Shown here: piece by piece, positions 3,315 through 45,695 of the stretch | Numbering within the stretch: position 1 is the stretch's first letter | Layout: every line of letters begins with the position of its first letter | Virus record (IMG/VR): IMGVR_UViG_3300045988_144013 | Length of the DNA stretch: 45,695 nucleotides | Strand: one strand, 5' to 3' | Source of the DNA: a virus | The notes under the pieces: generated by a model | What the model saw: the letters and a program-made list of their open reading frames with translations, nothing else | The model's database searches: none | What the model was told of the DNA's origin: nothing | Program-made: the position numbers and the translations under genes

Positions 3315-3365
3315 AATATCACCTCCATATATAGTAATTGTACCACAGCAAGGAGAGTATTCAAG

Positions 3366-3852: not shown

Positions 3853-3854
3853 AT

Positions 3855-4343: not shown

Positions 4344-4353
4344 GGTGGAGGAC

Positions 4354-5345: not shown

Positions 5346-5921
5346 ATGAAGCTAACAGTTAAAGGTTTACAGACGTTAAAAGGGATGGGATACATAAATT
5401 TAGTAGTACCTGTCCCTTTATCAGAGGAAGAAGAAATCAATAAAATCGATCCTGAAAAGCAGTATGTTGTAGAGGTCAAGCAATGGCGCAAAGGGCGTTC
5501 TAACGACGCTAATAAATACGCTTGGGTATTATGCCAAAGGATAGCAGAAAAGCTGTCAGAAGAGAGCTTTCACAGCAAGGAAGATGTTTACAGGAAGGCA
5601 ATCCGGGAATGTGGTTACGGCAGAATATGGCCAGTGCCAACTGACGCTGTAAACAGAACTATTGAAATTTGGCAAAGCAATGGTGTTGGCTGGATAGCTG
5701 AATTGCTTGGTGAATGTCAGAACATTAAAGGCTATAGCAATGTAAGGGTATATTACGGTAGCAGTGCTTATGACACGAAAGAGATGAGCCGTTTTATAGA
5801 TTGTTTGGTATCTATGGCAAAAGATATTGGTGTAGAAACAAGGCCGCAGGAAGAATTAGATGAGCTGATCAAGGAGTGGGGCGTTAAAGATGATTCCAAA
5901 AATAAAGAGGATAAGACTTAA
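5346..5921 (+). CDS. NinB/Orf-like recombination mediator
   Basis: KGRSNDANKYAWVLCQRIAEKL aligns by eye with lambda Orf RNRSLDQNRKLWACLGDV. The C-terminal SSAYDTKEMSRFIDCLVSMAKDIGV aligns with STSRMRVGEFAELLELIQAFG. Confidence 0.55.
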   Translation: MKLTVKGLQTLKGMGYINLVVPVPLSEEEEINKIDPEKQYVVEVKQWRKGRSNDANKYAWVLCQRIAEKLSEESFHSKEDVYRKAIRECGYGRIWPVPTDAVNRTIEIWQSNGVGWIAELLGECQNIKGYSNVRVYYGSSAYDTKEMSRFIDCLVSMAKDIGVETRPQEELDELIKEWGVKDDSKNKEDKT

Positions 5922-6186: not shown

Positions 6187-7110
6187 ATGAATACTGGGTT
6201 TATTGCTTTACATCGAAAATTGTTAGATAGTCCGATTTGGCAGGTTACGACAGTTGAGCAAAAGGTAATTTTAATCACTCTGCTTTTAATGGCAAATCAC
6301 AGTGAAAAAAAGTGGTATTGGCAGGGAGAAGAATTTATTTGCCAACCGGGACAATTTATAACCAGCTTGCCTAATATCGTAAAAGCTTGCGGAAATGGAC
6401 TAACAGTCCAAAATGTAAGGACTGCGTTAAAAAAGTTTGAAAATATGAATTTTTTAACAGACCAATCAACAAAGACTGGAAGGCTGATAACTATAGTAAA
6501 CTGGCAGGTTTATCAAGGAAAAAGGGAAGTCGATAACAGACAACCTAACAGTCAGCTAATAGACGGTCAACAGACACCTAACAGACAACCTAACAGTCAG
6601 CTAACATCTAACAATAATGATAATAATATAACAATGATAAACAATGATAATAATAATAACGCGCGCGCATGCGAGCAAACCAAAAATAGATTAGAGGTTA
6701 ACGAAAAAGAAAAAGGTTTTGAATTATTTTGGGAATTATATCCGTCGAAAAGGAAAAAGCCTGTTGCAAGAATAGCATGGATGAATATGCGTGTACACTC
6801 TGAAGAACAGTATGCATTGATTAATGCTGCTGTTGAGCGATACAAAAAAACTAATCAGTGGCAGGAGGAGAACGGAAGGTACATACCTGATCCTGATACT
6901 TTTTTGCAGGATGAACGTTGGACGGATGAAATCAAATTGTCTGAAGCAGTGCAAGCTGCTGACAGGGAAGCACAAGAGAAAGACGAATGGATTGCAAAAA
7001 ATAAGGAGCGCTGGGCAGCGATACCTCCAGAGAAAAGAAAATACAGACTGGCTTGTTTTATGGGGCTGGACTGGGAGGAAGTGAGGGATATGCCGTATGT
7101 TGGAACTTAG
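6187..7110 (+). CDS. Replication initiator / replisome organizer (winged-helix N-terminus, DnaD-like C-terminus)
   Basis: N-terminus FIALHRKLLDSPIWQ...GQFITSLPNI...VQNVRTALKKFENMNFL. Low-complexity linker that contains DNA iterons. Confidence 0.7.
   Translation: MNTGFIALHRKLLDSPIWQVTTVEQKVILITLLLMANHSEKKWYWQGEEFICQPGQFITSLPNIVKACGNGLTVQNVRTALKKFENMNFLTDQSTKTGRLITIVNWQVYQGKREVDNRQPNSQLIDGQQTPNRQPNSQLTSNNNDNNITMINNDNNNNARACEQTKNRLEVNEKEKGFELFWELYPSKRKKPVARIAWMNMRVHSEEQYALINAAVERYKKTNQWQEENGRYIPDPDTFLQDERWTDEIKLSEAVQAADREAQEKDEWIAKNKERWAAIPPEKRKYRLACFMGLDWEEVRDMPYVGT
6534..6604 (+). repeat. Two perfect 26-bp direct repeats, 45 bp apart, inside the initiator gene; candidate origin iterons
   Basis: TAACAGACAACCTAACAGTCAGCTAA at 6534-6559 and 6579-6604, with a partial copy between them. 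Followed by a 55-bp A/T-rich run and then GCGCGCGC. Confidence 0.55.
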
Positions 7111-7747
7111 AGAGATAACGGCAGCGTATGAAGTGTGGCAGGCGGCGGGATTAAAGCCAAACTGGGGAAGCGAAGATGCAAAAAAAACTATCGAAAGGCA
7201 AACCCTGGAGCGTTATAAATACACAGACATTGAGATGTGGGGCGATACTGTTGATTATATCGCTGATAATAATAAATATTGGCCAACATGGGCAGATATT
7301 AATAATACTTTATCAATCCTACGACAAAATAAAATTGGTGCAGAGAAGAAGGCTATTGAGCGTAATTCTAAAGCGGCAAATGAGTTTGTGAAGAAGCTAT
7401 TTGCTGATCTTGCTGCCGGTAAAACATTTGGCGAACTACGGCAGCCAGTGAGCGATAAAGTTAGAGCTGCAGCAAAGAGGATTTTTCCTGATGCCGACGA
7501 TAGCTTTATAAAGCGTAATTACAACGATATCAGCTTTATCGCAGACGTCGAACGAAAATGTGCTGAATGTATTAACACTGTTGATTGCCCATACAGCGGA
7601 CATCAACCGTTTTTGAGAGTAGACGAAGAAAGCGGATTTACTTATGTGGTAGCTGATCGTGAACGGTGTTATAAATATCATCCGTTAGTGCCTGATGTAG
7701 TACCAAAACGGTCAGCATGTCGTCAAGGTGATTTAGCTAAAGTTTAA
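7097..7747 (+). CDS. Hypothetical replication-module protein (possible helicase-loader-like)
   Basis: 216 aa. Overlaps the initiator stop. No Walker motif. Cys cluster CAECINTVDCPYSGH. Confidence 0.4.
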   Translation: MLELREITAAYEVWQAAGLKPNWGSEDAKKTIERQTLERYKYTDIEMWGDTVDYIADNNKYWPTWADINNTLSILRQNKIGAEKKAIERNSKAANEFVKKLFADLAAGKTFGELRQPVSDKVRAAAKRIFPDADDSFIKRNYNDISFIADVERKCAECINTVDCPYSGHQPFLRVDEESGFTYVVADRERCYKYHPLVPDVVPKRSACRQGDLAKV

Positions 7748-7760: not shown

Positions 7761-8285
7761 ATGAAAATAAGTGCAGAAAAATTACAGGAGATTATAGAAA
7801 GTCACGGCAGATGGTTGCGAAACGAAGAAGGAGGGGAACGTGCAAACCTCCGCAGTGCAGACCTCAGCAGTGCAGACCTCAGCGGTGCAGACCTCAGCGG
7901 TGCAGATCTCAGCGGTGCAGACCTCCGCAGTGCAGACCTCAGCAGTGCAGACCTCTACTGTGCAGACCTCAGCAGTGCAGATCTCAGCGGTGCAGACCTC
8001 CGCAGTGCAGACCTCCGCAGTGCAGACCTCCGCAGTGCAGACCTCGACAAAACATATTATCAAGTTGTTAGAGTTGGTAGTCGCCGAGGAATAACTACTT
8101 ATTGCGTAGATGACGACAATGTTCTATGCGGATGTTGGAATGGCTTCAAAGGTGGTACGCTAGACGAATTTAAAACTCGTGTAGAGAGTGTATACGGACG
8201 TGAAGGTAATAATCCTAACGAGCAATATTACGATGAGTATATGGCGGCAATCACATTCTTTGCGGCAATGAAGGAGATGAAATAA
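7761..8285 (+). CDS. Pentapeptide-repeat protein
   Basis: About 14 consecutive A(D/N)LxS/G pentapeptides (ADLSS/ADLSG/ADLRS), then an 85-aa Cys-containing C-terminal domain. Confidence 0.85.
   Translation: MKISAEKLQEIIESHGRWLRNEEGGERANLRSADLSSADLSGADLSGADLSGADLRSADLSSADLYCADLSSADLSGADLRSADLRSADLRSADLDKTYYQVVRVGSRRGITTYCVDDDNVLCGCWNGFKGGTLDEFKTRVESVYGREGNNPNEQYYDEYMAAITFFAAMKEMK
7841..8046 (+). repeat. 15-bp tandem repeat, about 13.7 copies (TGCAGACCTCMGCRG)
   Basis: Read directly. Units differ at only 1-3 positions. In frame, 3 pentapeptides per 45 bp. Confidence 0.95.
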
Positions 8286-18269: not shown

Positions 18270-18621
18270 GAGTATTACAGATGCGGATAGCCGGCAAGCT
18301 AAATTGCAGGCGTTCTTTCAAAGAGAGCTTCGCAAACGCGATCAGGATGCACTATCAACTATCTTAAATAGCGAAAGCGGACGCTGGTTTTTAATGCGAT
18401 TGCTTGATAAAACAAAAATCAATATAGATAGTTTTACCGGCAATTCACAGACCTTTTATAACGAGGGTATGAGAAAAGTCGGTTTATTAATTCTCGATGA
18501 TATTAAGAGTCTTGGTATTTCTGGAGTAGAGCTCAAACAAAAGGCTGAGCTTGAATATATAAAAACTCAAATCAAAGCGCAGGAAATTGCTGCCGAACAA
18601 TTGGAAGGAGACGATGACTAA
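18259..18621 (+). CDS. Bbp19-like head-module protein (tentative)
   Basis: GRWFLMRLLD...SFTGNSQTFYNEGMRKVGLLIL matches the remembered Bbp19-like pattern. GTG start. Confidence 0.4.
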   Translation: MRYKSITDADSRQAKLQAFFQRELRKRDQDALSTILNSESGRWFLMRLLDKTKINIDSFTGNSQTFYNEGMRKVGLLILDDIKSLGISGVELKQKAELEYIKTQIKAQEIAAEQLEGDDD

Positions 18622-19259
18622 TGGAAGATGTAACTAACACGAGTGCCAACGATAACACGCAGGGCACTGAAGTAGTTGAACAGCAGAAAGAGGTTCAACA
18701 GGAGACACAGTCTGCTGATACCCTTCTTGGTGGTAAAGCAGAAACTCAACCACAGGAAGAAGCTGAACCAATTGCTTATGACTTTAAAGAAACTATTTCC
18801 GCTATGGATGACTTTGAGTTCAGCCAGGAAGAGAGCGATAAGTTCGTAGAGGTCATTAAGGATATGGGGCTTAACAATGAGCAGGCTAACGCTATTGTTA
18901 AGTATGGCGGCGAATGGGGTAAAGGCATCGCAGAAGCTGCTATGAATGCTGTTATAGAGCAGCGAAATACAGAAGTTCAAAATTGGGGTGAGACTGCAAA
19001 GAAAGAACTTGGGACAGAGTTTGACAGTATCATTAGTCTTTGCGGTCTTGCGGTGGAACATGTAGAGAAAGCGGTTCCTGGTATCAGGCAGGCGTTAAAC
19101 GAAACAGGCGCAGGTAACAGAATTGAAGTTATCCGCGCTTTTTCTATGCTCGGAAAGTTTTTGGAGAGTGACCCGGGTAAAGGCGCTGGCGCTCCTGCCG
19201 CACAGGGAAGCAGCCTTGAAAAATTCTATGACAAAACAGATTTTAGTAAATTAAAATAA
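18621..19259 (+). CDS. Scaffolding protein
   Basis: Acidic 212-aa protein between the portal and capsid genes. Confidence 0.65.
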   Translation: MEDVTNTSANDNTQGTEVVEQQKEVQQETQSADTLLGGKAETQPQEEAEPIAYDFKETISAMDDFEFSQEESDKFVEVIKDMGLNNEQANAIVKYGGEWGKGIAEAAMNAVIEQRNTEVQNWGETAKKELGTEFDSIISLCGLAVEHVEKAVPGIRQALNETGAGNRIEVIRAFSMLGKFLESDPGKGAGAPAAQGSSLEKFYDKTDFSKLK

Positions 19260-20913: not shown

Positions 20914-21507
20914 GTGATGAATAATACAGATATTTGCAATATGGCCTTGGCTTATTTAGCTAAAGGCCGCATTTCTTCTATTGATGAGAATAACGAACTT
21001 GCAAGGCAGTGCAAGCTGTTTTATGACCATAGCCGAAAAGGTCTATTGCGTGAATATAGCTGGGGCTTTGCCAAGAGGATTATTAGGCTTGCAGAACTGG
21101 ATGCTTCAAATCCTGATTGGAAGTATGTATATGCATATCCAGAAAAATGTGTGTGTGCAAGACGTATTTTTAATGAGAAAGAGACTGTAAACAGCTTGGA
21201 TAAAGATAAGTATGATTTGTTTTTGATTAGTGATAATACGCAGGCTATAGGATGTGATGTGTACCAAGCATATTTGGAGTACACATATGACGCAGAGGAT
21301 GCAGAGCTTTTCAGTTCTGATTTTGTTGAGGCGTTGGCGAGGATGTTAGCTTTTAATATTTGCTTACAGTTAAATGGCAATGGGACTATCCAGCAGACAC
21401 AATATCAACTGGCACAGGCAGCTCTTAGCAGGGCAAAATATACTACGGCCGCTGAACGTCAGGATAAGTTGGACTACCCTGATAAATACTTTACTGCGAG
21501 GATGTGA
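20914..21507 (+). CDS. Head-tail adaptor / tail tubular A-like protein
   Basis: 197 aa. First gene of the tail block, preceding the nozzle-like gene. Confidence 0.4.
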   Translation: MMNNTDICNMALAYLAKGRISSIDENNELARQCKLFYDHSRKGLLREYSWGFAKRIIRLAELDASNPDWKYVYAYPEKCVCARRIFNEKETVNSLDKDKYDLFLISDNTQAIGCDVYQAYLEYTYDAEDAELFSSDFVEALARMLAFNICLQLNGNGTIQQTQYQLAQAALSRAKYTTAAERQDKLDYPDKYFTARM

Positions 21508-25730: not shown

Positions 25731-27812
25731 ATGAAATTCAGTCAATATCCTTCACAGGTCAATCCTAATACAATACAGGGACAAGTACAGCGCCCAGGCG
25801 ATTTAAACAGTTACGGTGGCAATGGCGCTGGATACGAGGCTATTGGTAGAGGATTGGGTGCGGTGAATGAAGTAACAATGAAAATGATAGAAGATGATGA
25901 TAAGCGTAGTTTATTGGAAGCTGTTGATAAATATAATAAAGCAAGATATAACATCCTTTATAACAATGAAACAGGCCTTATGAATACACGCCTTGAAGGT
26001 GCTGTCGGTGCGCAGGATAGGTATTTGGAAGAAGAACGAAAAATCAGAAGTGAAATTTTAGGACAGACTAAGTTTGTTACAAGCCAGTATAGATCTGCAT
26101 TTGAAGAGATGGCTAATAGGTCAGCAAATCAAGGCTGGGCACTTGTTGGGCAGCATCAACATCAACAAGGAGAAAAAGTTAAAGATGTCAGTTATGAAAA
26201 CAACATAAATGATCAGATCGAATTCGGGCAGAAAAATTATGATAATAATGATATTGTTGTGGGCAATGAGGCATCAATCAGACTTTTAACTTCTGCCAGA
26301 TATCAAGGATATGGAGAAGCATTTATAAAAAATAAAACAAGTCAGGCGCTGGGCAAATATGGAAGCACCTTGATCACTGCGGCGATAGTTAATCAGAATT
26401 ACGCCAAAGCGGACGAACTGTTAGGATATTTTTACGATGATTTAACTCCTGAGCAGCGTAATGGCTTTAACAATACAATATTTCAAAAAGAAAAGGTTGA
26501 AACCATAGATAGTTTTGCGCGGCAGATTTTCCAGCAGTTTGGTAATGATGAAGAAGGTGCCAGGGCTTTTATTGATAATATGGGTAATACCTCTATTGAC
26601 GAACAGCAACCAGGGAATGGTATTACGTGGGTCAAGAAAGAGGGCGCTTCGTTAGAGGGAACACAGTATGTAACTCGTAGTGGCCTTGCTGATTTGGGGC
26701 AATATTACCAAAAGATGACTGGTGAACCTTTATTGGTTACCAGTGGTACTGACAGCGGAAATTTGCACGCTGAAGGTGAGCGTAGCCATGGTGGCGGCTG
26801 GAAAGTAGATGTTGCAAGTGATTGGTTGGAGAATCCCGAAAATCGAGCTAAATTTATACAGTATGCTGAAAGTAAAGGGATTCTCGTACTTGATGAATAT
26901 AGTGAGCCGTCTACAAATTCTACGGCAGGACATTTAGATTTAGATTTTACTGACTACAAAGGCAGTGGTGGCGGTAGAAGGTTGATAGATTATGGCGATA
27001 AAGAAACTGTTTTTAAAATGTATAAAAACATGGTAAAGGATCAAGAGAACCGTCAGAAAGAACAGCAAAATGCTTTTTATGCTCAAACAATTGAAAATAT
27101 TTATAACCTTTATAAGCAGGGTGTTCCATATCAATCAGTAGTAGACCAAATCAAAGCAGTTGCCGGTGCAAATGTTGAAGCTGGCAAGAAAATGTTATCA
27201 GCTGCTGATTATTTTTATGATTCTGATGGTAAAATAAAAGGTCTAAGTTCTACACAGTTAGATGTTGCACAAGATATGCTTGGCGGTGGAATGTTCACTT
27301 CTCTTGAAGAGTATACAGGATTTTTAGCAAATCATGGCGCCAAACCTGAGCAGTTGTATAAAGCTAAAGAGACATGGGATCAATTTGAAAACTCCGAAGG
27401 ACGGTTTAGTTATAACTGGAGCGATCTGCAGCAAGATGTTGTTGGCGATATTAAAGATAAAAACGGTGCGAAAGCTCAGGCATGGCGAGAAGCACAAGCC
27501 TACGGAAAAGTATTTATCAGCAAATTTATTTTAGAAAACAAGCGCGAACCTATGTATCATGAAGTTGTTGAAGCGTGTAGAAATTCTCTTAAAAAAAATC
27601 ATTTTGGAACAATGACAGTAAGGGGCTCATATCTGAATAGCGAAGAAGAAGTAAATATTAGTGATGCGCGTTTAGCGCTGGTTGGGATACGTAATGTAGA
27701 AAGGGCTAGAAATACTGATGGCAGTCTGACAGAAGATTTGTTTATTGTAAGATATACAGATGGACGCGTAGAGCAAATGAATGCCGCGAAATTATATATT
27801 ATAGCTGGATGA
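25731..27812 (+). CDS. Internal virion protein with an M15-type (VanY/DD-peptidase-like) peptidoglycan hydrolase domain
   Basis: ERSHGGGWKVDV and AGHLDLDF resemble the SxHxxGxAxD / H zinc ligands of peptidase M15. 693 aa in the core-protein block. Confidence 0.55.
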   Translation: MKFSQYPSQVNPNTIQGQVQRPGDLNSYGGNGAGYEAIGRGLGAVNEVTMKMIEDDDKRSLLEAVDKYNKARYNILYNNETGLMNTRLEGAVGAQDRYLEEERKIRSEILGQTKFVTSQYRSAFEEMANRSANQGWALVGQHQHQQGEKVKDVSYENNINDQIEFGQKNYDNNDIVVGNEASIRLLTSARYQGYGEAFIKNKTSQALGKYGSTLITAAIVNQNYAKADELLGYFYDDLTPEQRNGFNNTIFQKEKVETIDSFARQIFQQFGNDEEGARAFIDNMGNTSIDEQQPGNGITWVKKEGASLEGTQYVTRSGLADLGQYYQKMTGEPLLVTSGTDSGNLHAEGERSHGGGWKVDVASDWLENPENRAKFIQYAESKGILVLDEYSEPSTNSTAGHLDLDFTDYKGSGGGRRLIDYGDKETVFKMYKNMVKDQENRQKEQQNAFYAQTIENIYNLYKQGVPYQSVVDQIKAVAGANVEAGKKMLSAADYFYDSDGKIKGLSSTQLDVAQDMLGGGMFTSLEEYTGFLANHGAKPEQLYKAKETWDQFENSEGRFSYNWSDLQQDVVGDIKDKNGAKAQAWREAQAYGKVFISKFILENKREPMYHEVVEACRNSLKKNHFGTMTVRGSYLNSEEEVNISDARLALVGIRNVERARNTDGSLTEDLFIVRYTDGRVEQMNAAKLYIIAG

Positions 27813-33897: not shown

Positions 33898-33920
33898 TTA
33901 TCATTACAATTTATTTGACA

Positions 33921-34301
33921 TTAGAAGAAAAATTTATGGGAATGACATTGTTCATATATTTTTCTTATTTCCCAATTAGAAATATTATAGCCATGTAGTC
34001 GTTTATTGTGGAAAACCAACATAAATAAAAACCAAAAAAATGGCAAAATGAATCCTAGATAGGCATTATAAGAATAAATACCAGTTATGTATGGTATAAA
34101 ATATATTGTCGCGATAATTAGTCCGAGAGCAACAAATACATTTTCAATTAATTTTATAATTAGCAAATATAAAGTAAAAGCAATTAAAGTAATAATTCCG
34201 CATTGAAGTTTAAGTATTATTGAACCTTCACGACCCATTCCGATTGCAAATATAGAAAGCCATACACATAATCTTCCCATATCGTCATTAAATTTATCCA
34301 T
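33921..34301 (-). CDS. Four-TM membrane protein; candidate superinfection-exclusion protein (SieA position)
   Basis: 126 aa, very hydrophobic, low-GC codons. Own TG-extended -10 (TGATATAAT) and RBS AGGAG. Confidence 0.6.
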   Translation of the reverse strand: MDKFNDDMGRLCVWLSIFAIGMGREGSIILKLQCGIITLIAFTLYLLIIKLIENVFVALGLIIATIYFIPYITGIYSYNAYLGFILPFFWFLFMLVFHNKRLHGYNISNWEIRKIYEQCHSHKFFF

Positions 34302-34370
34302 ACCAATACTCCTAAAATAAGCATATTATTGACTGTTTTTCATAATTATATCACATTTATAAATGAAAAT

Positions 34371-34392
34371 AAAACAGCCCGTAGGCTGTTTT
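34371..34392 (-). terminator. Terminator after the XRE gene
   Basis: AAAACAGCC-CGTA-GGCTGTTTT, symmetric hairpin. Confidence 0.6.
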
Positions 34393-34396
34393 AAAG

Positions 34397-35101
34397 TTAA
34401 GATTTATTAAGGTATTCTTCTATGAATTTATTCAAGTCATTATCTTGATTGTCTACTATTATATATAAATCATCAATAATAGAATGTTTTTTTGAATCTG
34501 TAATGAATTTAAACTGACCTGAAATAAAAGCAAAAAGTCCGATTACGACTTCACTGTCTCTGAAAAATTTGAAAAGCAAATAACCATTCTGTGAAATAGG
34601 ATCAATTGCGGTGAAATATGATTCCTGTTCTAAAAAATCATAATCATTAAATTGAGGGAAAAAGCTCAAAATAAAATCATTTATGATTGGATGTGTTGAA
34701 TTAAAATGTTTGTTTTTATCCAAAGAAACCGGATTTCCATTGTCATCCAAAACCATTATTTCTTCTTTTAAGTCTTCTGGTATCTTTTTTATGAATGGAA
34801 CACTTTCAACTTTAGGGAAGATATCCCAGTGAACCAAAGAATTCTGTGTATCGTATATTAGTTTTTCTACTAATTTATAGACTTTAGAGTCAGACTTTGA
34901 TTGAGTATCTAAAAGCAGATAATCTAAAGTTACATTAAATAATTCTACAAGTTTTTTTAATAATTCTGGATCGCTAGGAATACTTTTTCCCGTTTCGTAG
35001 TAACTAACAATTCTCGAGGATACTCCTAACTTTGTGGCTAAATCTTTTTGGGTCATACCCTTGGCTTCACGGAGTTTCTTTAGATTTTCACTGAAAGACA
35101 T
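34397..35101 (-). CDS. XRE-family HTH regulator with an unknown 165-aa C-terminal domain (Mnt-position repressor)
   Basis: LREAKGMTQKDLATKLGVSSRIVSYYETGK. Start reset to MSFSEN. Divergent from the RHH/antirepressor operon. Low GC. Confidence 0.75.
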   Translation of the reverse strand: MSFSENLKKLREAKGMTQKDLATKLGVSSRIVSYYETGKSIPSDPELLKKLVELFNVTLDYLLLDTQSKSDSKVYKLVEKLIYDTQNSLVHWDIFPKVESVPFIKKIPEDLKEEIMVLDDNGNPVSLDKNKHFNSTHPIINDFILSFFPQFNDYDFLEQESYFTAIDPISQNGYLLFKFFRDSEVVIGLFAFISGQFKFITDSKKHSIIDDLYIIVDNQDNDLNKFIEEYLNKS

Positions 35102-35180
35102 ATTAATCACCACCTAAAGCAATTATAACAATAAGAACCATAAGACACAATATTTTTCTCGAAAAACATCAAGACGTATA

Positions 35181-35209
35181 TTGACATAACTAACGTATTA
35201 CGTTAAAAT
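35181..35209 (+). promoter_or_regulatory. Promoter TTGACA-N17-TAAAAT with an embedded 15-bp perfect palindrome TAACGTATTACGTTA
   Basis: Consensus -35. The palindrome 35191-35205 spans the spacer and -10. 33 nt before the RHH gene. Confidence 0.65.
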
Positions 35210-35241
35210 TAAAAGTAACAAACGAGAAAGGAGTATTAAAG

Positions 35242-35412
35242 ATGAGGCCAACAATTGATTTTAAAGGTGATCTTGGAGCAGTACTTAGATACCACTGTAC
35301 AAAAGTGGGCATTAGTATTGCTGGCTATGTCAAGGGGTTAGTGTATGATGATTTGTTAAAGAAGTATCCTAACTTACTTGATGAAACAAAAAAAGAAACT
35401 ACCATCAAATAG
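35242..35412 (+). CDS. Arc/Mnt-like ribbon-helix-helix protein (56 aa, tentative)
   Basis: N-terminal beta-strand-like TIDFKGDL followed by two helices. RBS AAAGGAG. Not in the ORF track. Confidence 0.45.
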   Translation: MRPTIDFKGDLGAVLRYHCTKVGISIAGYVKGLVYDDLLKKYPNLLDETKKETTIK

Positions 35413-35471
35413 TTCTTGGCGGAACAATGGTAGTTTCATAATGAAAGAATGTTCAAGATAAACATCATTCT
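35388..35471 (-). ncRNA. Candidate antisense small RNA, about 84 nt (sar-like position)
   Basis: Minus-strand promoter TTGAAA-N17-TAAACT (complement of 35478-35506). 11-bp perfect hairpin 35395-35405 / 35427-35437, followed on the minus strand by T7. Confidence 0.4.
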
Positions 35472-35531
35472 TTTAACAGTTTATCATATATTGAACATTC
35501 TTTCAAATTAAAATTGAAAGGATGTATTTTT

Positions 35532-36263
35532 ATGAAAAACGAACTGAAGATTTTTGAAAACGAAGCTTTTGGTAAAGTTAGAATAATTGAAAAAAATAAT
35601 GAGCCGTGGTTTGTAGGCAAAGATGTTGCTGATATTTTGGGGTATAAAAATGGCAGCCGTGATATTAACGTCCATGTTGATGAAGAAGATAGGCTAAAGT
35701 ACCAAATCCGTACCGCAGGTCAAGCGAGAGAGCAGACACTTATTAACGAAAGCGGATTATACTCATTGATTCTATATAGTAAGCTACCTGCCGCAAAGAA
35801 ATTCAAACGCTGGGTAACAAGCGAAATACTTCCTGCGATTCGCAAAACTGGGTCGTATTCTGTAAATCAGGATATAAAAGCTAGAGAAGTAGAAGCTCGC
35901 TTAAATAACAGCCGGGCAAGAGTTGCATCGACATTCCTTAAAGTTGCTCAAATGACTGATCTGCTAGAATATAAGCATATATGTCAGCAGAAAGCAGCAG
36001 AGGTTTTAAGTGGTTTACCGTTACTACCAATGGAAGAAGCTAAAGAAATTACTTATTCAGCAACAGATATAGGGAAAATGCTTGGAGTATCGGCAAATAA
36101 AATAGGTAAGATAGCCAATCAGCATAATCTTAAAACGCCGCAGTATGGAAAGTTATTTTACAGCAAATCGGAACATAGTTGCAAAGAAGTAGAAACATTC
36201 CGTTACTACGAATGCGCCATTCTAAAATTCAGAGAAATTCTGAAAGGTGGTGTGGTGGCATGA
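35532..36263 (+). CDS. BRO-N domain antirepressor
   Basis: LKIFENEAFGKVRII...EPWFVGKDVADILGY...INESGLYSLILYSKLPAAKKFKRWVTSEILPAIRKTGSY. Start reset to MKNELK. Confidence 0.85.
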   Translation: MKNELKIFENEAFGKVRIIEKNNEPWFVGKDVADILGYKNGSRDINVHVDEEDRLKYQIRTAGQAREQTLINESGLYSLILYSKLPAAKKFKRWVTSEILPAIRKTGSYSVNQDIKAREVEARLNNSRARVASTFLKVAQMTDLLEYKHICQQKAAEVLSGLPLLPMEEAKEITYSATDIGKMLGVSANKIGKIANQHNLKTPQYGKLFYSKSEHSCKEVETFRYYECAILKFREILKGGVVA

Positions 36264-36472
36264 ACTTGACAGATGCTATTAAATTAGCTGGATATCAGGA
36301 AGTGCCATTCTACAATCAAGAAGTTATAAAAGGGTTAAATGATATAGTGGAGTGTGAAAAACGGAAAAGCAGCTATAACGATTTACCTTTTGCGGCGTGT
36401 TTGAGTGGTTACTTGTATGGAGTTACGCAAGGCGTTCGTAAAGAACGGCAAAGAAGAAAAAATGCCCGGTAA
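36260..36472 (+). CDS. Hypothetical protein (70 aa)
   Basis: ATGA overlap with the antirepressor stop. Start reset to MNLTDAIK. Confidence 0.5.
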   Translation: MNLTDAIKLAGYQEVPFYNQEVIKGLNDIVECEKRKSSYNDLPFAACLSGYLYGVTQGVRKERQRRKNAR

Positions 36473-37178: not shown

Positions 37179-37210
37179 AGCGCTTACTTCGGTAGGCGCT
37201 TTTTTATTTG
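37179..37210 (+). terminator. Terminator with UUCG tetraloop, family member 3
   Basis: AGCGCTTAC-TTCG-GTAGGCGCT followed by TTTTTATTTG, which runs straight into the tail-fibre RBS GGAAGGAGGG. Confidence 0.7.
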
Positions 37211-37225
37211 GAAGGAGGGAAAACT

Positions 37226-38374
37226 TTGATAGGCAGTAGTGAAAATAGGATTACATACAATGGGAATGGAGTTGCTACAGAGTTTGGATATTCTTTTAAG
37301 ATATTGGAAAAGACCGATATTAATGTAGTACTTGTTGATCCTGATTTAAAAGAAACTGTTTTAACCAAAGATTATTTCGTTGATATGGAGAAGTCAGTAG
37401 TGTTTTATCCTGGCTATTCTCCGGGAGCAGAACCACCAGAGGCAGAACGACCACCAATATTACCTGAAGGGTGGCAGCTTGTTTTATATCGTGAGGTTCC
37501 TATAACACAGGAATCTCAGTTGGATACTCATTGGCCATTTAATGTTATCGAAGCGGCATTGGATAAACTAACGATAATTTGCCAACAGCTGTGGGACGGT
37601 GTAACGAGAGCAATTCGTTTATCAGATTCAGCGCCTAAAGATATTTCTACAGTTCTGCCACAACCAATGCCAAACGAGAGTTTTTATTGGGATGAAACCG
37701 GTAAAAAACTTATTGCTGGGCCTAATCCTAAATTTGCTATGGAGCAGGCACAGGCGAGTGCAGAATCTGCAAAGAAGTCTGAAACGTCAGCAGCAGAAAG
37801 TGCAGAATCTGCAAAAAAAGATGCAGAGAAAGCAGAAGATGCTGCTGACCGTGCAGAAGATATTTTACTACGGTTCGAGAGCGGAACTATAACAAAAGAG
37901 TTTACTGCGACAGATGACAGATGGACTGAAAACAACGGCATGTGGCGTCTTACAATGGCAATGGGTAACAGCAGGCTTATAGGCGTATACAAGGAAGTCA
38001 AGAAGCCTCAGTATGAAATGGTACTGACCGGCGTTTATATGGACGCTGAAAATGTGATTATCGAAGTGCCTGAAAAGTTTGCGGGTATCGTTATACTGGC
38101 GTCGCTGACTAAAAAAACCGGTGACAAAGTATATATCAAAAATTTTACTGAGGAAGATTTTACAAAGGTTGGCAGCGATTCTGTACTGACCATATCTGCC
38201 GAGGAACACCAGGCAGGGAGCAGTCCTATCATCGTCAGCTTAACAAAAATCATTGATGGTGTTAGCTATCCTTATTATGCTAATACCGGCGTAGATAATA
38301 ACGGTAACGTTGTTATAAATGCGAGCGAAGCGTTCGCAGGGAAAATAATTTTGGATGGAGGTTATTTACAATGA
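37226..38374 (+). CDS. Tail fibre protein, proximal
   Basis: N-terminus NRITYNGNGVATEFGYSFKI...INVVLVD is typical of tail-fibre anchors. AESAKKSETSAAESAESAKK repeat. TTG start 6 nt after the strong RBS. Confidence 0.7.
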   Translation: MIGSSENRITYNGNGVATEFGYSFKILEKTDINVVLVDPDLKETVLTKDYFVDMEKSVVFYPGYSPGAEPPEAERPPILPEGWQLVLYREVPITQESQLDTHWPFNVIEAALDKLTIICQQLWDGVTRAIRLSDSAPKDISTVLPQPMPNESFYWDETGKKLIAGPNPKFAMEQAQASAESAKKSETSAAESAESAKKDAEKAEDAADRAEDILLRFESGTITKEFTATDDRWTENNGMWRLTMAMGNSRLIGVYKEVKKPQYEMVLTGVYMDAENVIIEVPEKFAGIVILASLTKKTGDKVYIKNFTEEDFTKVGSDSVLTISAEEHQAGSSPIIVSLTKIIDGVSYPYYANTGVDNNGNVVINASEAFAGKIILDGGYLQ

Positions 38375-39342
38375 ATGTAGAAAAAATTGGAACTGGAACG
38401 CAGCGTGAAAGAGATGCTGCGATAAACGCTAATTTTGAAGCGTTAGATACTGGCAAGCTTGATAAAACATCGGCAGATTCTGACTATGCTAAGAAGTCTA
38501 CAACTTTAAGTGGTTATGGTATTACTGATGCATATACAAAGACTGAAACTGATAATAAAATTTCTGCTGTTGTATCTTCATTACAATGGAAGCCTTCTGT
38601 TGAAACATATGCAGATATTGCAACAACTTATCCTAATCCGGCAGACGGCTGGACTGTAAACGTAAATGATACGGATATAACATATCGTTATACTGGTTCA
38701 AGTTGGATTGCTATTTCTGCAAACTCCATTCCTATTGCTACTTCTGACACAGACGGCAAAATGTCCGCTGCAATGGCAGCTAAACTGAATGGTATTTCTG
38801 AGGGGGCTAATAATTACACGCTTCCTGCTGCTACGGCAAGCGTATTAGGCGGTGTAAAAATCGGTTCTAACATTAATATCAATAGTGATGTTATTTCAGT
38901 AAATAATGCGTCTACGACCCAAAAAGGTGTCGTGCAATTAATAGATAGCTTAGTTACAGAAGATTACACCAAAGCTCCAACTGCCGCAGCTATGAAAAGA
39001 ACATGGGAGTTAGCTTCCGGTAAACAAAACCCTGAGACGACATTATCCGGCTATGGAATTACTGATGCTTATACGAAAACCGAAGTTGATAATAAAATAA
39101 CAGAAGCTGTTGCCGGTGCTGCAGTACTCAAAACTGAATTTACAGCAAGCAGTGCTAACTGGGGAACATTATCAGACGGCTATTATCCATTTACTTTAGC
39201 GGCGTCAGGAAAACACTTCCTCGGCATGTATAGAACTAACGGCAGTACATATGAGAGTGTTATGGTTGACGCCGTTGAAAGTGGCAGTAATATTATAATT
39301 CAAAGTACGGAAAAGTTTGCCGGCTTTATTCTGACGATTTGA
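38371..39342 (+). CDS. Tail fibre protein with two LSGYGITDAYTKTE fibre-repeat motifs
   Basis: The motif occurs at about 38503-38562 and again at about 39040-39099. ATGA overlap with the upstream gene. Confidence 0.75.
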   Translation: MNVEKIGTGTQRERDAAINANFEALDTGKLDKTSADSDYAKKSTTLSGYGITDAYTKTETDNKISAVVSSLQWKPSVETYADIATTYPNPADGWTVNVNDTDITYRYTGSSWIAISANSIPIATSDTDGKMSAAMAAKLNGISEGANNYTLPAATASVLGGVKIGSNININSDVISVNNASTTQKGVVQLIDSLVTEDYTKAPTAAAMKRTWELASGKQNPETTLSGYGITDAYTKTEVDNKITEAVAGAAVLKTEFTASSANWGTLSDGYYPFTLAASGKHFLGMYRTNGSTYESVMVDAVESGSNIIIQSTEKFAGFILTI

Positions 39343-39353: not shown

Positions 39354-39953
39354 ATGGGACTTGAGGGATTAGTAACAGTTGAAAAAATAAGAGCTGCAAT
39401 CAATGCATCACTATCAGGTCTGAGTAACTCTAATGCAACGATTACTATAACAAAGAATGATGGTACAACTAGTACTATTACCATTAACAATGTAGCTAAT
39501 GCGACTACTGCAACAAAACTCGGAAGCAGCACTGTAGGCAGTGGCGTAAAGGCAATTTATCTTAATGCAGGTACGGCAACTGCGAGTAATAGTACTGTGG
39601 GGAACAGCAACACGCCGGTGTACTTAAACGCTGGCACTATAACAGCTTGTGATGCAAGTATTGGTTCCGGTTGGACTGTTTCAGAAGGGGCGGCAGGTTG
39701 GGCGCGAGAAAATACCACTGGCTTCACCATCCAGTGGTGGGTAGGGAATACTGATGCTACATATAGAAGCATTACTTATCCTAGAAGTTTTTCAACTTTG
39801 TATTATGCAAATGTTATAGCGTCCAGCAACTGCGAAACATTTGTTACAGGTGTTAGTAATACCAGTATTAGTTTTTGCCTATGTAGTGGTTACAATGATG
39901 ATCGCTGGAGCGGTTCACAGCCTTGTAGGCTTTATGCTTGTGGCTTGACTTAA
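39354..39953 (+). CDS. Tail fibre tip / receptor-binding protein (expressed orientation, tip V1)
   Basis: Ser/Thr/Asn-rich shaft, then a C-terminal tip domain after TGFTIQW. The left inverted repeat lies inside the gene. Confidence 0.75.
   Translation: MGLEGLVTVEKIRAAINASLSGLSNSNATITITKNDGTTSTITINNVANATTATKLGSSTVGSGVKAIYLNAGTATASNSTVGNSNTPVYLNAGTITACDASIGSGWTVSEGAAGWARENTTGFTIQWWVGNTDATYRSITYPRSFSTLYYANVIASSNCETFVTGVSNTSISFCLCSGYNDDRWSGSQPCRLYACGLT
39707..39737 (+). repeat. Left 31-bp inverted repeat (IR-L) of the putative invertible segment
   Basis: AGAAAATACCACTGGCTTCACCATCCAGTGG is the exact reverse complement of 40133-40163. Confidence 0.95.
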
Positions 39954-40162
39954 CTTATGCCAAACGCTACATACCTTTGTCCTTGTCCTGGTGACCCAAT
40001 GGTGAAACCATTGTTAGAGATAGATGTTACAGTTACTTGGTTCTTATATAATTGTTCACCTTTATTGTTATTAGTTTGCATTACAACCTGAAACGCTGTT
40101 GTAAAAGTGCGAGGAAAGGTAGTTGTATCGCCCCACTGGATGGTGAAGCCAGTGGTATTTTC
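39950..40162 (-). other. Silent alternative tail-fibre tip cassette (V2), 70 codons plus stop, no start codon of its own
   Basis: The minus strand reads ENTTGFTIQWGDTTTFPRTFTTAFQVVMQTNNNKGEQLYKNQVTVTSISNNGFTIGSPGQGQRYVAFGIS*. A stop lies 13 codons upstream with no ATG/GTG/TTG between. Its stop overlaps the V1 stop. Confidence 0.8.
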
Positions 40163-40163
40163 T
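40133..40163 (-). repeat. Right 31-bp inverted repeat (IR-R)
   Basis: Exact reverse complement of 39707-39737. Confidence 0.95.
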
Positions 40164-40180
40164 ATGAAAAGGAGAACTAT

Positions 40181-40780
40181 ATGACTTACTTAATTAAATT
40201 CGATGAAACCGGTAGACGTGGGGAAACCTATGTCGCCGAAGAAAAAACACAGGAAGAAATTACAGAACTGCTTGAAAAAGGTTTTGTACAAATTCCAGAA
40301 GAAGATTATCAGCTTATTGTCGGTAATATTGATGGTCATGAGTATATACGTAAATCTGATGGAAGTTATAGTATATATGAACCTCCTACGCCTGACTTAG
40401 AAGAACTGAAGGCAAATAAACTGGCAGAGGTAGACGCTTGGACAGAAGGAAAAATCACCGGCGGGTTTACATCTGAATGTAGCGGAGAGCTGGTCAGATA
40501 TGACAGCGATAAAGATACACAACTTACAATGCAGGGTATAGCCTTGAACGTAAATACAGATCGCTTTGCTGTAGAATATCCTACAGGCTGCCCTGTGCGT
40601 GGTTACGCAGATAGAAGTGCTGTCAAAACGATCTTCTATCTTACGCCGGAACAGGTGTTCGAGTGGTGCGCTGATTTATCTACCCATATAGGTACGTGTA
40701 AGCAGGCAGGTTGGAATAAACAGGCTGAAGTAAATGCAGCTCAAAGCAAAGAGGAATTGGATGCGATTATTTTAGATTAG
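40181..40780 (+). CDS. DUF4376 domain protein (tail-fibre-associated)
   Basis: Start reset to MTYLIKFDETG, with RBS AAAGGAG. ELKANKLAEVDAWTEGKITGGF...YDSDKDTQLTMQG is the DUF4376 pattern. Confidence 0.6.
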   Translation: MTYLIKFDETGRRGETYVAEEKTQEEITELLEKGFVQIPEEDYQLIVGNIDGHEYIRKSDGSYSIYEPPTPDLEELKANKLAEVDAWTEGKITGGFTSECSGELVRYDSDKDTQLTMQGIALNVNTDRFAVEYPTGCPVRGYADRSAVKTIFYLTPEQVFEWCADLSTHIGTCKQAGWNKQAEVNAAQSKEELDAIILD

Positions 40781-42390: not shown

Positions 42391-42843
42391 ATGAAAAAAT
42401 ATATAATCATCGGTATTGGATTATTGTGGTCATTATTATTGCTTGTATCGCTGCCTGCTGTATGTTCTGCGGAGGAACTTCCGGAGACAATAACGATGTC
42501 TCGGGAACAGTTCAACGAATTACAGACGATAATAAACAGACAGGAGAATCTATTGACCGAGCTGTCGAACATGTCGGCAGTGCAGGAGATGAACTCGAGC
42601 GAGCTGAAGAAGCTAATCGAAGAGCAGCGTTTATCCTATCAGAAAATCAAAAGCGAGCTAACGAGTGCGCAGGAATCATTATTGAACTCCAAAAAAACAA
42701 TAGCAGAGCAAAACAAATCCTTGCAGACGTTGAGCGAGCAAATAAAGAAAGAACAATCCAAAAGTGAGCTTAAGCAAAAACAAAAGGCTTTATGGGGATT
42801 TATCGGAGGGGCATTAGTTGGAGCGATAGCAGCGAGCAGGTGA
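42391..42843 (+). CDS. Unimolecular-spanin candidate (N-terminal signal/lipobox-like Cys, coiled coil, C-terminal TM)
   Basis: MKKYIIIGIGLLWSLLLLVSLPAVCSA... long coiled coil ...ALWGFIGGALVGAIAASR. Confidence 0.45.
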   Translation: MKKYIIIGIGLLWSLLLLVSLPAVCSAEELPETITMSREQFNELQTIINRQENLLTELSNMSAVQEMNSSELKKLIEEQRLSYQKIKSELTSAQESLLNSKKTIAEQNKSLQTLSEQIKKEQSKSELKQKQKALWGFIGGALVGAIAASR

Positions 42844-42847
42844 TTAT

Positions 42848-43090
42848 ATGGATAATTGCCGATTGCAGGCAAGAGATTGGCTTTCTCGATCTACCCGTAA
42901 GGAATTTGAAGCAATAATCCAGGAAGCCAAGTTAACGCCACGGCAGATGGAAATTATTGAACTGAAGTTTATTCACGATCTCAAAAATTATCAAATAGCA
43001 ATGCGAATAGATACGTCAGTGCAAACGGTCGAAAGAGATTTGCGGCAGGCGTATAATTCGGTTAAGAGAGTATTAAAGGCGGTCACATGA
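42848..43090 (+). CDS. Sigma-70 region-4-like small HTH regulator
   Basis: LTPRQMEIIELKFIHDLKNYQIAMRIDTSVQTVERDLRQA. Confidence 0.6.
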   Translation: MDNCRLQARDWLSRSTRKEFEAIIQEAKLTPRQMEIIELKFIHDLKNYQIAMRIDTSVQTVERDLRQAYNSVKRVLKAVT

Positions 43091-43114
43091 TAAGTGTGAC
43101 TGCCTTATTTTTTA
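43078..43114 (+). terminator. Rho-independent terminator
   Basis: GGCGGTCACA / TGTGACTGCC (one mismatch) followed by TTATTTTTT. Confidence 0.65.
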
Positions 43115-43203
43115 TGTCTTGGTGAGGGAAATATGAAGGAATGTTGACGGATTATAAAGGCTGATTTAAGCGATAATTTAAGTAAGAAACGGAGGCGATA
43201 ACA

Positions 43204-43653
43204 ATGTATGGAATAAATCCCTACGCTCCTGTAAATCCTGCAATGGCGGGAGTGACACAGCAGCGTTTAGCCAATTACCAATCACAAATGCCGCAGATGT
43301 CTACATATCAGCCACAGCAGTTTGTACCGCAGCCACCTATGCCTTTGATGATGAAAGGACGTACAGTAGCCAGCTTAGACGAAGTAAAGGCTGCTCAAAT
43401 TGATTTGGATGGAAGCCTTACATATTTTCCTTGCCCGGCAGACAGCTGCATATATGCAAAGTATATTGATATGAATGGGATGCCGGTAATACAAAATTAT
43501 AAATTGTCGCTTGAAAAAGAGCCGGTTCCGAAGAGATACGCTGATGCGGAATTAGTTGAAGCTCTGCAGCAAAAAGTAAATTCTTTAGAACGATATGTGA
43601 AGGGGGAGACAGTAAGTGCAAATGAATCCGTTGACAATGATGCAAATGTTTAA
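43204..43653 (+). CDS. Accessory protein with a P/Q/M-rich N-terminus
   Basis: 149-aa ORF with RBS ACGGAGG. Conserved-looking core TVASLDEVKAAQIDLDGSLTYFPC. Confidence 0.55.
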   Translation: MYGINPYAPVNPAMAGVTQQRLANYQSQMPQMSTYQPQQFVPQPPMPLMMKGRTVASLDEVKAAQIDLDGSLTYFPCPADSCIYAKYIDMNGMPVIQNYKLSLEKEPVPKRYADAELVEALQQKVNSLERYVKGETVSANESVDNDANV

Positions 43654-43855
43654 CCAAATCAAGGGCAGCAATAACCCTATGGGTATGATGCAGCAAATGT
43701 TTGGTAATAACCCTATGTTCGGGCGTGCTATGGAAATGGCACAAGGTAAGTCGCCTGAGCAGCTAAAAGAAACTGTTATGAATCTTGCAAAACAACGTGG
43801 TATTGATCCGCAGCAAGCTCAGCAAATGCTTTCTCAATTTGGTATTAAAATCTGA
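43616..43855 (+). CDS. Accessory M/Q/N-rich small protein
   Basis: 79 aa. GTG start 8 nt after GGGGGA. Overlaps the upstream gene. Confidence 0.45.
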   Translation: MQMNPLTMMQMFNQIKGSNNPMGMMQQMFGNNPMFGRAMEMAQGKSPEQLKETVMNLAKQRGIDPQQAQQMLSQFGIKI

Positions 43856-43906
43856 TCGGTGGCCACCAGATGATTTTAAACAATAAATTTAAAGGAGATG
43901 TTCTAT

Positions 43907-44542
43907 ATGACTATGGAAGGTAGTGGCGTAATGCCTGTATATGATCTGAATAACCGTACCGCAGCAGCAGACGGCGCCGGGTTTGGCGGCGGCTGGATGT
44001 GGGTAGTAATGTTATTCTTCCTGCTTGCCTGGGGCGGCGGTGGATTCGGTGGTTTCGGAGGCGGCGCTAATGGTGCTGTAAATACTTTGACTAATGAATT
44101 TCTTTATACCAATCTGAATAGTACTTTAGATCGTGGTTTTAATCAACTCGCAAATCAAAACTTCGGTATTCAAAAAGACTTATGTCAAGGCTTCGGCGGT
44201 GTTCAGGCTGCTATTGCTCAGTCCACCTTCGCTGCTCAACAGTGCTGCTGCGAAACCAATCGTAACATTGACGCGGTTCGTTACGAGAATGCTAAAAACA
44301 CTTGTGACATTACCTCTGCTATTCATGCGGAAGGTGAAGCAACTCGCGCATTAATGACTGCGAATGTTATGCAGGAACTGCGTGACCAACTGCAAGCTGC
44401 TCAGCTGCAACTTGGAACTTTGGCTCAGACTTCTAACATCATTAATGCGGTACGTCCGTTCCCGCAGCCGGCTTACATCACTTGCAGCCCGTATCAATCT
44501 GCAACCGGTGTTTATGGCTGTGGCGGTTGTGGCACCGTGTAA
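43907..44542 (+). CDS. Accessory membrane protein: Gly-rich TM N-terminus, CCC-containing core, Cys-rich tail
   Basis: GFGGGWMWVVMLFFLLAWGGGGFGGFGGG ... AQQCCCETNRNIDAVRYENAKNTCDI ... GCGGCGTV. Start reset to MTMEGS. Confidence 0.55.
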   Translation: MTMEGSGVMPVYDLNNRTAAADGAGFGGGWMWVVMLFFLLAWGGGGFGGFGGGANGAVNTLTNEFLYTNLNSTLDRGFNQLANQNFGIQKDLCQGFGGVQAAIAQSTFAAQQCCCETNRNIDAVRYENAKNTCDITSAIHAEGEATRALMTANVMQELRDQLQAAQLQLGTLAQTSNIINAVRPFPQPAYITCSPYQSATGVYGCGGCGTV

Positions 44543-44552
44543 TTCCGCTTAA

Positions 44553-44597
44553 AGCGTGACTATTAACAGGGGAGCTGTCACGCTTCCCTGTTTTAAT
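44553..44597 (+). terminator. Terminator with two overlapping alternative hairpins
   Basis: AGCGTGAC/GTCACGCT and AACAGGGGA/TCCCTGTT, followed by TTTT. Confidence 0.55.
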
Positions 44598-44616
44598 TTA
44601 AGGAGATGAATTATAA

Positions 44617-45045
44617 ATGGCAACTTGTAATTGCAGAACTATATTGACCACGGCTGTAGCAGTAAGCGGTAGTAACTTGGTGGTGACCATTCCTGCCGGC
44701 ACTTATGAAAACTGCGTTAGATATTGTATTAGGATAGCGCAGGATATTCCTTCTACTGCTACAAATCTTATGCCAGTAGTTATTAAAATCGGTACTGGTG
44801 CTACTTTGTATAATGTAAATCGTAAATGCGGACATCATTTATATGCCAATCAGGTAAGAACGCGACGTAATTATTCTTTGCTGGTAGCTGCTGACAGTGC
44901 AACCTTTGTTCTTGAATGCGGCTATATTGCTGCCTGCAACTGTGGTACTGTACCCGGACTGCCTGTAGCAACAGCAGAACCTGCAGAAGATAATACTGAA
45001 GTTCAGACCGTAAAAAATACTAAGGCGGTGAGCAAGGATGCATAA
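44617..45045 (+). CDS. Accessory Cys-containing protein
   Basis: 142-aa ORF with RBS AAGGAG. MATCNCRT... N-terminus. Confidence 0.55.
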   Translation: MATCNCRTILTTAVAVSGSNLVVTIPAGTYENCVRYCIRIAQDIPSTATNLMPVVIKIGTGATLYNVNRKCGHHLYANQVRTRRNYSLLVAADSATFVLECGYIAACNCGTVPGLPVATAEPAEDNTEVQTVKNTKAVSKDA

Positions 45046-45499
45046 GTACGAAGATTATATTGATATCGTGGACGGCGATGAAATGAAAGAAGATGAAATA
45101 GATTGTATCGTCTGTGGAGCTTTGGAAAAACTTAAAGCACACGATGAAGATGATTATGAAGCTGTAATGATGAAAATTCATTGCGTAGCTCATGGACCAC
45201 ACTTCGATGAGCATCTTGCTAAAAAAGCCGTTTCGGAAATGAAAAATGTTGACGGCACTGCTGGCGAGCATTGGACGTTAGAAGAAACAACCCGTGTCAT
45301 GGATCAAAATGGTATTAAAGCCAATAAGTATGATTGGTATTACTTATTGAATATGTTACATAGCGATTATTCTCACCTATGGGGAGAAGATGTTGCTCAG
45401 TATGTTAAATTTGCTAAAGCGTACATCAATGATCCTGATGCTGGTACAGGTAAGGTATTTTATCTGTGGAGAGCTGGGAAGCATCATCATCATAAATAA
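45038..45499 (+). CDS. Accessory protein, conserved hypothetical (HWTLEETT...YDWYYLLNMLHSDY type)
   Basis: 153-aa ORF overlapping the upstream stop. Natural C-terminal HHHH run. Confidence 0.55.
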   Translation: MHKYEDYIDIVDGDEMKEDEIDCIVCGALEKLKAHDEDDYEAVMMKIHCVAHGPHFDEHLAKKAVSEMKNVDGTAGEHWTLEETTRVMDQNGIKANKYDWYYLLNMLHSDYSHLWGEDVAQYVKFAKAYINDPDAGTGKVFYLWRAGKHHHHK

Positions 45500-45544: not shown

Positions 45545-45568
45545 ATTCGTCAAAAATTCGTCAAAAAT
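45545..45568 (+). promoter_or_regulatory. Second copy of the tandem ATTCGTCAAAA x2 site (opposite arm of the att region)
   Basis: Identical 24-mer to 99-122. In the circular form the two copies flank about 170 bp that contains the 55-bp repeat. Confidence 0.5.
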
Positions 45569-45640: not shown

Positions 45641-45695
45641 ATTCTTCTGGAATTGGCTATAATTGTTTCATTAAATAGCACTTTATGATATAATA
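45641..45695 (+). repeat. Terminal direct repeat, right copy
   Basis: Bases 45641-45695 are identical to 1-55. Confidence 0.95.

Follow-up and report, generated by a model that had tools for sequence, protein, structure and literature searches.

Tail-fibre inversion is a classic host-range hedge of temperate phages, and in the textbook cases the phage encodes its own invertase. Invertases of the Gin, Cin, Pin and Min type cross-complement in trans, and a Hin/Gin-type site measures 26 bp, with two 12-bp half-sites around a 2-bp core and an A/T-rich ...AAACC-NN-GGTTT... consensus. The 45,695-nt stretch of DNA analysed here (IMG/VR virus record IMGVR_UViG_3300045988_144013, hereafter the window) carries a tail-fibre segment that is bounded by two 31-bp inverted repeats, IR-L and IR-R, and that occurs in both orientations in nature. 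As in the Mu G, P1 C, e14 P and p15B Min segments, inversion joins a constant N-terminal part of the fibre to alternative C-terminal tips; short inverted repeats (~30 bp) at the junction and a change of host range as the outcome are likewise traits of the Mu G type. In function the switch is of the Mu G/P1 C type, but it lacks that family's defining linked serine invertase and gix/hix site. No serine invertase gene adjoins the segment, and each repeat holds an odd-length 23-bp palindrome instead of a 12-2-12 hix/gix site, with no AAACC-NN-GGTTT core. It differs further in that its accessory gene lies outside the segment instead of being duplicated inside, in its length of only 395 bp, and in its host, a Gram-negative-type Firmicute (Negativicutes).

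A second point of comparison is offered by the Rci-sfx system of R64, whose sfx site is asymmetric, with one long conserved arm and one short. There and in the Rin shufflon of Bifidobacterium prophages, for which the features compared were taken from PMC6109161, a receptor-binding C-terminus is exchanged at short sites, as it is here. The present site is likewise asymmetric, with a long conserved arm (the outer 15 nt) and a short inner arm, and its overlap geometry is compatible with a tyrosine recombinase, a 7-bp centre being possible. However, no armless tyrosine recombinase lies beside the cassettes in the gene neighbourhoods, the repeat is unrelated to rix (TTCCCTAACCC), and each genome holds two cassettes (about six in the population) rather than three or more invertible segments per locus.

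Recombinases that act in trans are known, among them RecV of C. difficile. Mpi of B. fragilis is another (PMC6109161), and in tRNA-Met bifidophages a segment of ~500 bp inverts at an 8-bp site with no flanking recombinase, for which the authors suggested an invertase in trans (PMC6109161). This orphan inversion is the nearest precedent. A segment flanked by inverted repeats is again found in both orientations in natural populations, with no recombinase within or next to the element. In contrast to the orphan loci, the repeat here is palindromic and, at 31 bp, far longer; the IMG/VR scans yielded, among the matches listed, no second target locus with the same site, and the module is common to podovirus and myovirus prophages of one host species. 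The earlier note had called such a mechanism unusual for a tail-fibre switch; it is unusual but not unprecedented, given the orphan bifidophage inversion (PMC6109161). Tail-fibre genes are enriched among predicted programmed inversions across bacteria (PMC9881135). A literature search on inversion or invertons in Phascolarctobacterium returned nothing relevant.

The invertible tail-fibre segment

The repeats bound a genuine invertible tail-fibre segment. In a 45,184-bp metagenome contig (L001) whose flanks are 99.5-99.9% identical to the window, the interval 39707-40163 is exactly inverted with zero bases gained or lost, and the natural breakpoint falls inside IR-L. The protein encoded there (P0060, 188 aa = 128 + 60) shares its first 128 residues with the window protein, and its last 60 are those of the cassette that is silent in the window (G1) save two positions. 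The cassette expressed in the window (W) occupies the silent position in this contig and in other loci.

The same alternation was seen across the collection. A set of 31 IMG/VR stretches was chosen by the repeat core alone and each was oriented by its flanks, with the result that 15 loci had W on and 13 had another tip on. Both orientations were present within each repeat haplotype, and a neighbour-joining tree of the flanks required at least 11 orientation changes among 38 loci. The module also occurs in a P2-like myovirus prophage (Baseplate_J, Tail_P2_I, GpU). There, L216 expresses W and L022 a third tip, G2; the two loci are ~99.3% identical, and a precise inversion of 541 bp at the same repeats sets them apart. 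Inversion is thus precise, conservative and repeated in two phage morphotypes, whose carriers have only a Bro-N gene, the fibre tip and a DUF4376 gene in common in the stretches compared. An 873-bp contig encoding P0062 was considered as within-sample evidence; it ends inside the segment and is uninformative.

IR-L and IR-R are 100% complementary over 31 bp, enclose 395 nt, and form the sole long perfect inverted repeat within the window (Table 1). Homologues of the tip gene (n=98) are annotated as hypothetical protein of Phascolarctobacterium faecium, and the constant part up to FTIQW is common to all variant proteins. On the opposite strand, reading inward from IR-R, ten repeat-encoded residues run on into the G1 C-terminus in translation; the G1 tip has a weak Gp53-like_C match (PF21882, Pfam). 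The W and G1 cassettes meet tail to tail and their stop codons overlap, so that the segment holds nothing else and leaves no obvious space for a Fis-dependent enhancer. The accessory DUF4376 gene, common to both tips, is the sole gene adjoining the switch in every locus.

Every locus consists of exactly two repeats and two cassettes. About six unrelated tips follow the FTIQW junction directly across protein matches in different phages: W, G1, GNGDAFW..., GNPSASK..., ATWSSGD... and GSGSIAL... (proteins P0063, P0068, P0071, P0077 and P0079; loci L022 and L215), with W nearly always the partner cassette. The repeat edges do not vary over 45 loci, these ~6 tip types and the two morphotypes; in this the repeats act like discrete sites.

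Table 1. Coordinates of the switch, of the integrase and its att site, and of repeat variants and a palindrome match in other loci
Feature	Sequence	Position	Strand	Remark
Tail-fibre tip gene	window	39354-39953	+	199-aa open reading frame (ORF)
Constant N-terminal part of tip gene, aa 1-128, ends ...ENTTGFTIQW	window	39354-39737	+	from ORF list and homologues
IR-L, left 31-bp inverted repeat AGAAAATACCACTGGCTTCACCATCCAGTGG	window	39707-39737		coding; encodes (R)ENTTGFTIQW, residues 118-128
IR-L internal dyad CCACTGG-CTTCACCAT-CCAGTGG	window	39715-39737		
W cassette (WVGNTDATYRS..., 71 aa + stop)	window	39738-39953	+	tip expressed in window orientation
G1 cassette (GDTTTFPRTF...AFGIS, 60 aa + stop)	window	39950-40132	-	silent alternative tip, in frame with IR-R
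IR-R, right 31-bp inverted repeat	window	40133-40163		outer 8 nt non-coding, still same as IR-L
IR-R internal dyad	window	40133-40155		
DUF4376 gene	window	40172-40780	+	PF14301; phrog_1348 'tail fiber protein'; likely tail-fibre assembly or accessory
Two fibre-like genes upstream of switch	window	37208-38374 and 38371-39342		
Tyrosine integrase (Arm-DNA-bind_4 + SAM_3 + Phage_integrase)	window	126-1187	-	
att core TATGATATAATA, 12 bp	window	44-55, again 45684-45695	+	second copy by circular overlap
Arm-type repeats TTCGTCAAAAA	window	100-121 and 45546-45567		two tandem copies each side of core
IR-R variant, CCGCTGG	L009	3387-3409		
IR-L variant, TCACTGG	L213	2871-2893		
IR-L variant, AAG for AAT	L214	about 798-804		
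Hairpin CCCACTGGAT-TTTTT-ATCCAGTGGG	L100	13463-13489		intergenic, then T-rich run

The palindrome within the repeats

The dyad that the earlier note had pointed out in each repeat is exactly placed, with CCACTGGCTTCACCATCCAGTGG at 39715-39737 and its reverse complement at 40133-40155; these are the only two matches in the window, against 0.01 expected. The extension of the IR-L arms to 8 bp (A39714/T39738) is real in the window orientation, T39738 being part of the W cassette and travelling with it on flipping. The symmetric element is 23 bp and odd in length (7-9-7, 8-7-8 or 9-5-9), and in IR-L the longer readings, 8-7-8 or 9-5-9, carry one mismatch at position 8. Perfect dyads of at least 7 bp occur in ~1.35% of the 31-mers of the window and in 1.2% of synonymous recodings of RENTTGFTIQW, a frequency that makes the window dyad unusual, not overwhelming.

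Only two repeat haplotypes were present in the loci examined, the second being (A/G)GAAAATTCCACTGGATTTACCATCCAGTGG, which differs at three positions. In this sister haplotype a synonymous change of GGC to GGA yields a perfect 9-5-9 palindrome, CCACTGGAT-TTACC-ATCCAGTGG, of a kind found in 0.06% of 31-mers and 0.1% of synonymous recodings (fold z-score -4.1). The 8-7-8 geometry is exact in the T-type haplotype and has one mismatch in this window. Both repeats share all three haplotype differences, even though IR-R has no coding function in its outer 8 nt and borders on intergenic DNA that has diverged.

The possibility that the dyad simply follows from the conserved peptide (TTGFTIQW) was rejected. 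About 1% of synonymous recodings give the dyad, and the homologue in L025, which has the peptide ENSTGLTVQW, no silent cassette and no switch, uses different codons and lacks the motif, so the protein does not force it. Over the same peptide motif, L025 carries a shorter and different dyad at 3355-3385 (GTACAG-GTTTAA-CTGTAC); 4-10% of recodings reach 6 bp, and this one is probably due to chance.

The palindrome has the look of a binding site for a protein dimer, in keeping with the resemblance to a recombinase core site that the earlier note had pointed out, and the dyad may form the crossover core. No AAACCNNGGTTT with up to one mismatch was found near the switch. A Xer/dif-like site was also considered and rejected, the repeat being unlike the A/T-rich dif consensus.

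In 42 of 45 loci the two repeats match each other perfectly. Three natural variants with one mutated repeat (L009, L213 and L214, Table 1), each seen in one orientation, have their changes within the outer half of the repeat and are potential markers for mapping the crossover. A 14-base dyad scan of IMG/VR returned at least 116 stretches and, among the matches listed, paired sites in this switch family only. An 18-base palindrome scan of the same collection added one locus, a 10-5-10 hairpin in an unrelated gut phage (L100), which was read as a chance palindrome match because it is terminator-like. No more diverged switch emerged from protein alignment in IMG/VR, where the same two repeat haplotypes recurred.

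Candidate agents of the inversion

No invertase gene was found in the phage itself. In line with the earlier note, a Pfam search of essentially all ORFs found no serine recombinase (PF00239), and the tyrosine integrase (PF00589) is the sole recombinase in the window. A tblastn search of the window in any frame with Gin, Hin and gamma-delta resolvase (query sequences possibly inexact) returned nothing significant, and the same queries gave no serine-recombinase match in 567 kb of mostly related loci. When ORFs of the related loci were searched by phmmer with the window integrase, no second tyrosine recombinase was detected; the hits were copies of that integrase only, situated at the far prophage end, away from the cassettes.

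About an even chance is given to a portable switch that has no recombinase of its own and is served in trans by an unlinked site-specific recombinase. Recombination at the two 31-bp repeats would invert the DNA in a programmed manner and so swap the C-terminal receptor-binding tip (W, 71 aa; G1, 60 aa) after the constant residues 1-128. The enzyme would come from the P. faecium chromosome or a co-resident element and would bind, as a dimer, the palindrome CCACTGG(A/C)T-N5-ATCCAGTGG in each repeat, with strand exchange in the asymmetric centre of the palindrome. We infer that the palindrome serves as both binding and crossover site and that the enzyme is unlinked to the switch. The enzyme would be of the tyrosine type. 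A 7-bp overlap is possible for tyrosine recombinases and Hin/Gin sites are 12-2-12, and the odd-length 8-7-8 geometry with its possible 7-bp overlap therefore favours the tyrosine family over serine invertases of the Hin/Gin type. Among the three agents proposed in the earlier note, a Gin-type host invertase accordingly appears less likely than a tyrosine-type one, the phage integrase is disfavoured, and homologous recombination is the main rival.

Several points weigh against an unlinked enzyme acting at the palindrome. No candidate recombinase was identified, and the repeat pattern had 0 matches in 185,579 representative genomes, so no host genome was searched; a protein scan of the representative genomes gave two distant fibre relatives, with no repeats. 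The scans described above, among the matches listed, gave no second locus with the same palindrome to mark a shared trans-acting enzyme. The synonymous rate of IR-L equals that of the upstream gene (2 of 10 third positions differ, compared with 16-20% upstream), so no extra DNA-level constraint is visible on this copy, and the haplotypes are related by descent, so that a dyad conserved in both does not count as independent evidence. Co-variation in both repeats just outside the dyad requires gene conversion, which is more typical of homology-based exchange. Finally, the evidence for both orientations comes from comparisons between assembled contigs.

The main rival, unlikely but with a chance that deserves serious weight, is a homology-driven inversion across the 31-bp repeats by host RecA or by a phage module made up of a Gam-like protein, a putative annealing protein and a NinB/Orf mediator. 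The palindrome would then be incidental, or would help only through replication stalling. The perfect repeat identity in nearly all loci fits such a process, as does the presence of all three haplotype differences in both copies, one of them outside the dyad, which implies gene conversion of the whole repeat. However, the repeat never exceeds 31 bp, though nothing is encoded on the outer side of IR-R that would keep it from extending, and the 9-5-9 palindrome, expected at ~0.1% by chance, is left unexplained. A length of 31 bp is close to the minimum for RecA-dependent exchange; large phage populations could make low rates suffice. The count of at least 11 flips, in a set of 38 closely related loci, speaks for an efficient process. 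None of the backbones has a recombinase linked to the switch, and the phage does encode the Gam-like gene (3840-4343) and NinB/Orf (5346-5921), with Rad52-like, ERF or AAA_24 genes in relatives at the place syntenic to ORF 4345-5010. The annealing identity of this ORF is itself only putative. The Rad52-type label of the earlier note was not confirmed: neither Pfam nor the PDB gave a match for the ORF, and its AlphaFold model is too poor to use (predicted local distance difference test score 41.7); synteny with the single-strand annealing protein genes of relatives is the only basis for the label.

A bolder proposal, regarded as quite unlikely, is that the switch is a recombinase-free cassette complete in itself, in which the 31-bp repeat with its 9-5-9 palindrome is by itself sufficient for efficient and reversible inversion, the agent being a housekeeping or unsuspected host enzyme, or generic recombination proteins of phage or host stimulated by the palindrome. 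If true, a self-sufficient repeat would explain how the module moves among P. faecium podoviruses and myoviruses with ~6 interchangeable tips, and would represent a previously undescribed mode of tail-fibre phase variation.

That the phage integrase moonlights as the invertase, with the dyad as a secondary core site, is very improbable. It is the sole recombinase in the window, and an 8-7-8 dyad fits a tyrosine recombinase with a 7-bp overlap. The att core was defined by comparing attP with the left junction (L010), the right junction (L060) and the empty site (L216). In P. faecium, the attachment site attB is flanked by a HIGH_NTase1 (PF05636) gene and by ackA; it is empty at L216 20555-20690, with the same core. 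The comparison of dyad and att core proposed in the earlier note could thus be made, and the AT-rich core (6-7-6, TTATGA-TATAATA-TTATAA) is wholly unlike CCACTGG. No copy of the core, or of the TTCGTCAAAAA arms, which occur at attP only, was found near the switch (39.7-40.2 kb). Moreover, prophages that encode the identical tip protein P0001 end at tRNA-Arg with other flanking repeats (e.g., L004), and the L216 contig has a flipping myovirus switch while the attB of the present phage is empty. An att core and arms unlike the dyad, together with the switch in tRNA-Arg prophages and in a flipping myovirus, argue against this enzyme.

Equally hard to favour, and rated as very unlikely, is that the phage encodes a recombinase whose family went unrecognised. 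Neither Pfam nor PHROG gave a match for several ORFs (for example 7097-7747, 18621-19259, 20914-21507 and 25731-27812) that could hide one, but these unannotated ORFs sit in structural or replication modules. Podovirus and myovirus carriers have only the three genes named above in common in the stretches compared; Bro-N is missing within 10 kb of the switch in two loci (L002 and L003), and DUF4376 proteins are fibre-associated. That there is no active switch, the orientations being errors of assembly or left over from a single ancient inversion, is scarcely credible: they are read from assemblies, but the 31-bp repeat is shorter than the assembler k-mers (k109-k141, SPAdes), both states recur across many independent samples and assemblers, and the tree changes (at least 11) come with both states in each haplotype and in two phage types.

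Phage context and significance of the switch

The window was assembled as a circle whose ends overlap by 55 bp (1-55/45641-45695). Judged by its genes, it is a temperate podovirus-like phage, with a head-tail connector, a GP7 capsid protein, T7 gp13/gp14-like proteins and a 1995-aa MuF_C protein identified by Pfam. Its host is taken to be P. faecium, the name carried by its close protein relatives, and integrated copies of the phage were found in chromosomal contigs of up to 0.95 Mb. The tail region had no match by megablast among the cultured-phage records of INPHARED. The terminal overlap stops precisely with the final base of the att core (TATGATATAATA), the point at which attP and attR diverge, which suggests that both excised and integrated forms were present in the source sample.

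Other features of the genome were noted in passing. Between the 1995-aa MuF_C gene and the fibre genes lies a low-GC (31%) island at 33900-36300, comprising an opposite-strand membrane ORF (33921-34301), a helix-turn-helix regulator (34397-35113) and a Bro-N gene (35514-36263) that is 65% identical to the Bro-N of the myovirus carrier L049; the island has the appearance of a moron or an immunity-type insertion. Some pentapeptide-repeat proteins mimic DNA, and one protein of this kind, with ADLSS/ADLRS repeats, is encoded in the early region (7761-8285). Past the lysis module, genes run on up to attP (42391-45499) and encode a signal-peptide coiled-coil protein, a sigma-70 region-4 protein (42848-43090), Q/M-rich and Gly-rich proteins, and a DUF7841 protein so widespread that 2,994 blocks of the collection list it. 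Upstream of the integrase, the recombination genes of L010-L017 differ at one place despite an identical integrase and repressor region, the alternatives being Gp157 with a 218-aa ORF, Rad52-like, ERF or AAA_24; this is an unmistakable instance of module swapping.

The documentation of the switch is solid, and its palindromic site is new. It is a minimal device without a linked enzyme, made of two palindrome-bearing 31-bp repeats, two tips and one common accessory gene, and it has spread over unrelated prophage backbones of a prevalent human-gut bacterium, with its states about equally frequent in metagenomes. The motif CCACTGGAT-N5-ATCCAGTGG provides a defined and testable handle for finding the enzyme. 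If a host or co-resident recombinase drives the switch, the host range of these gut phages would be partly controlled by genes outside the phage, and annotation pipelines that look for a neighbouring invertase will miss such switches.

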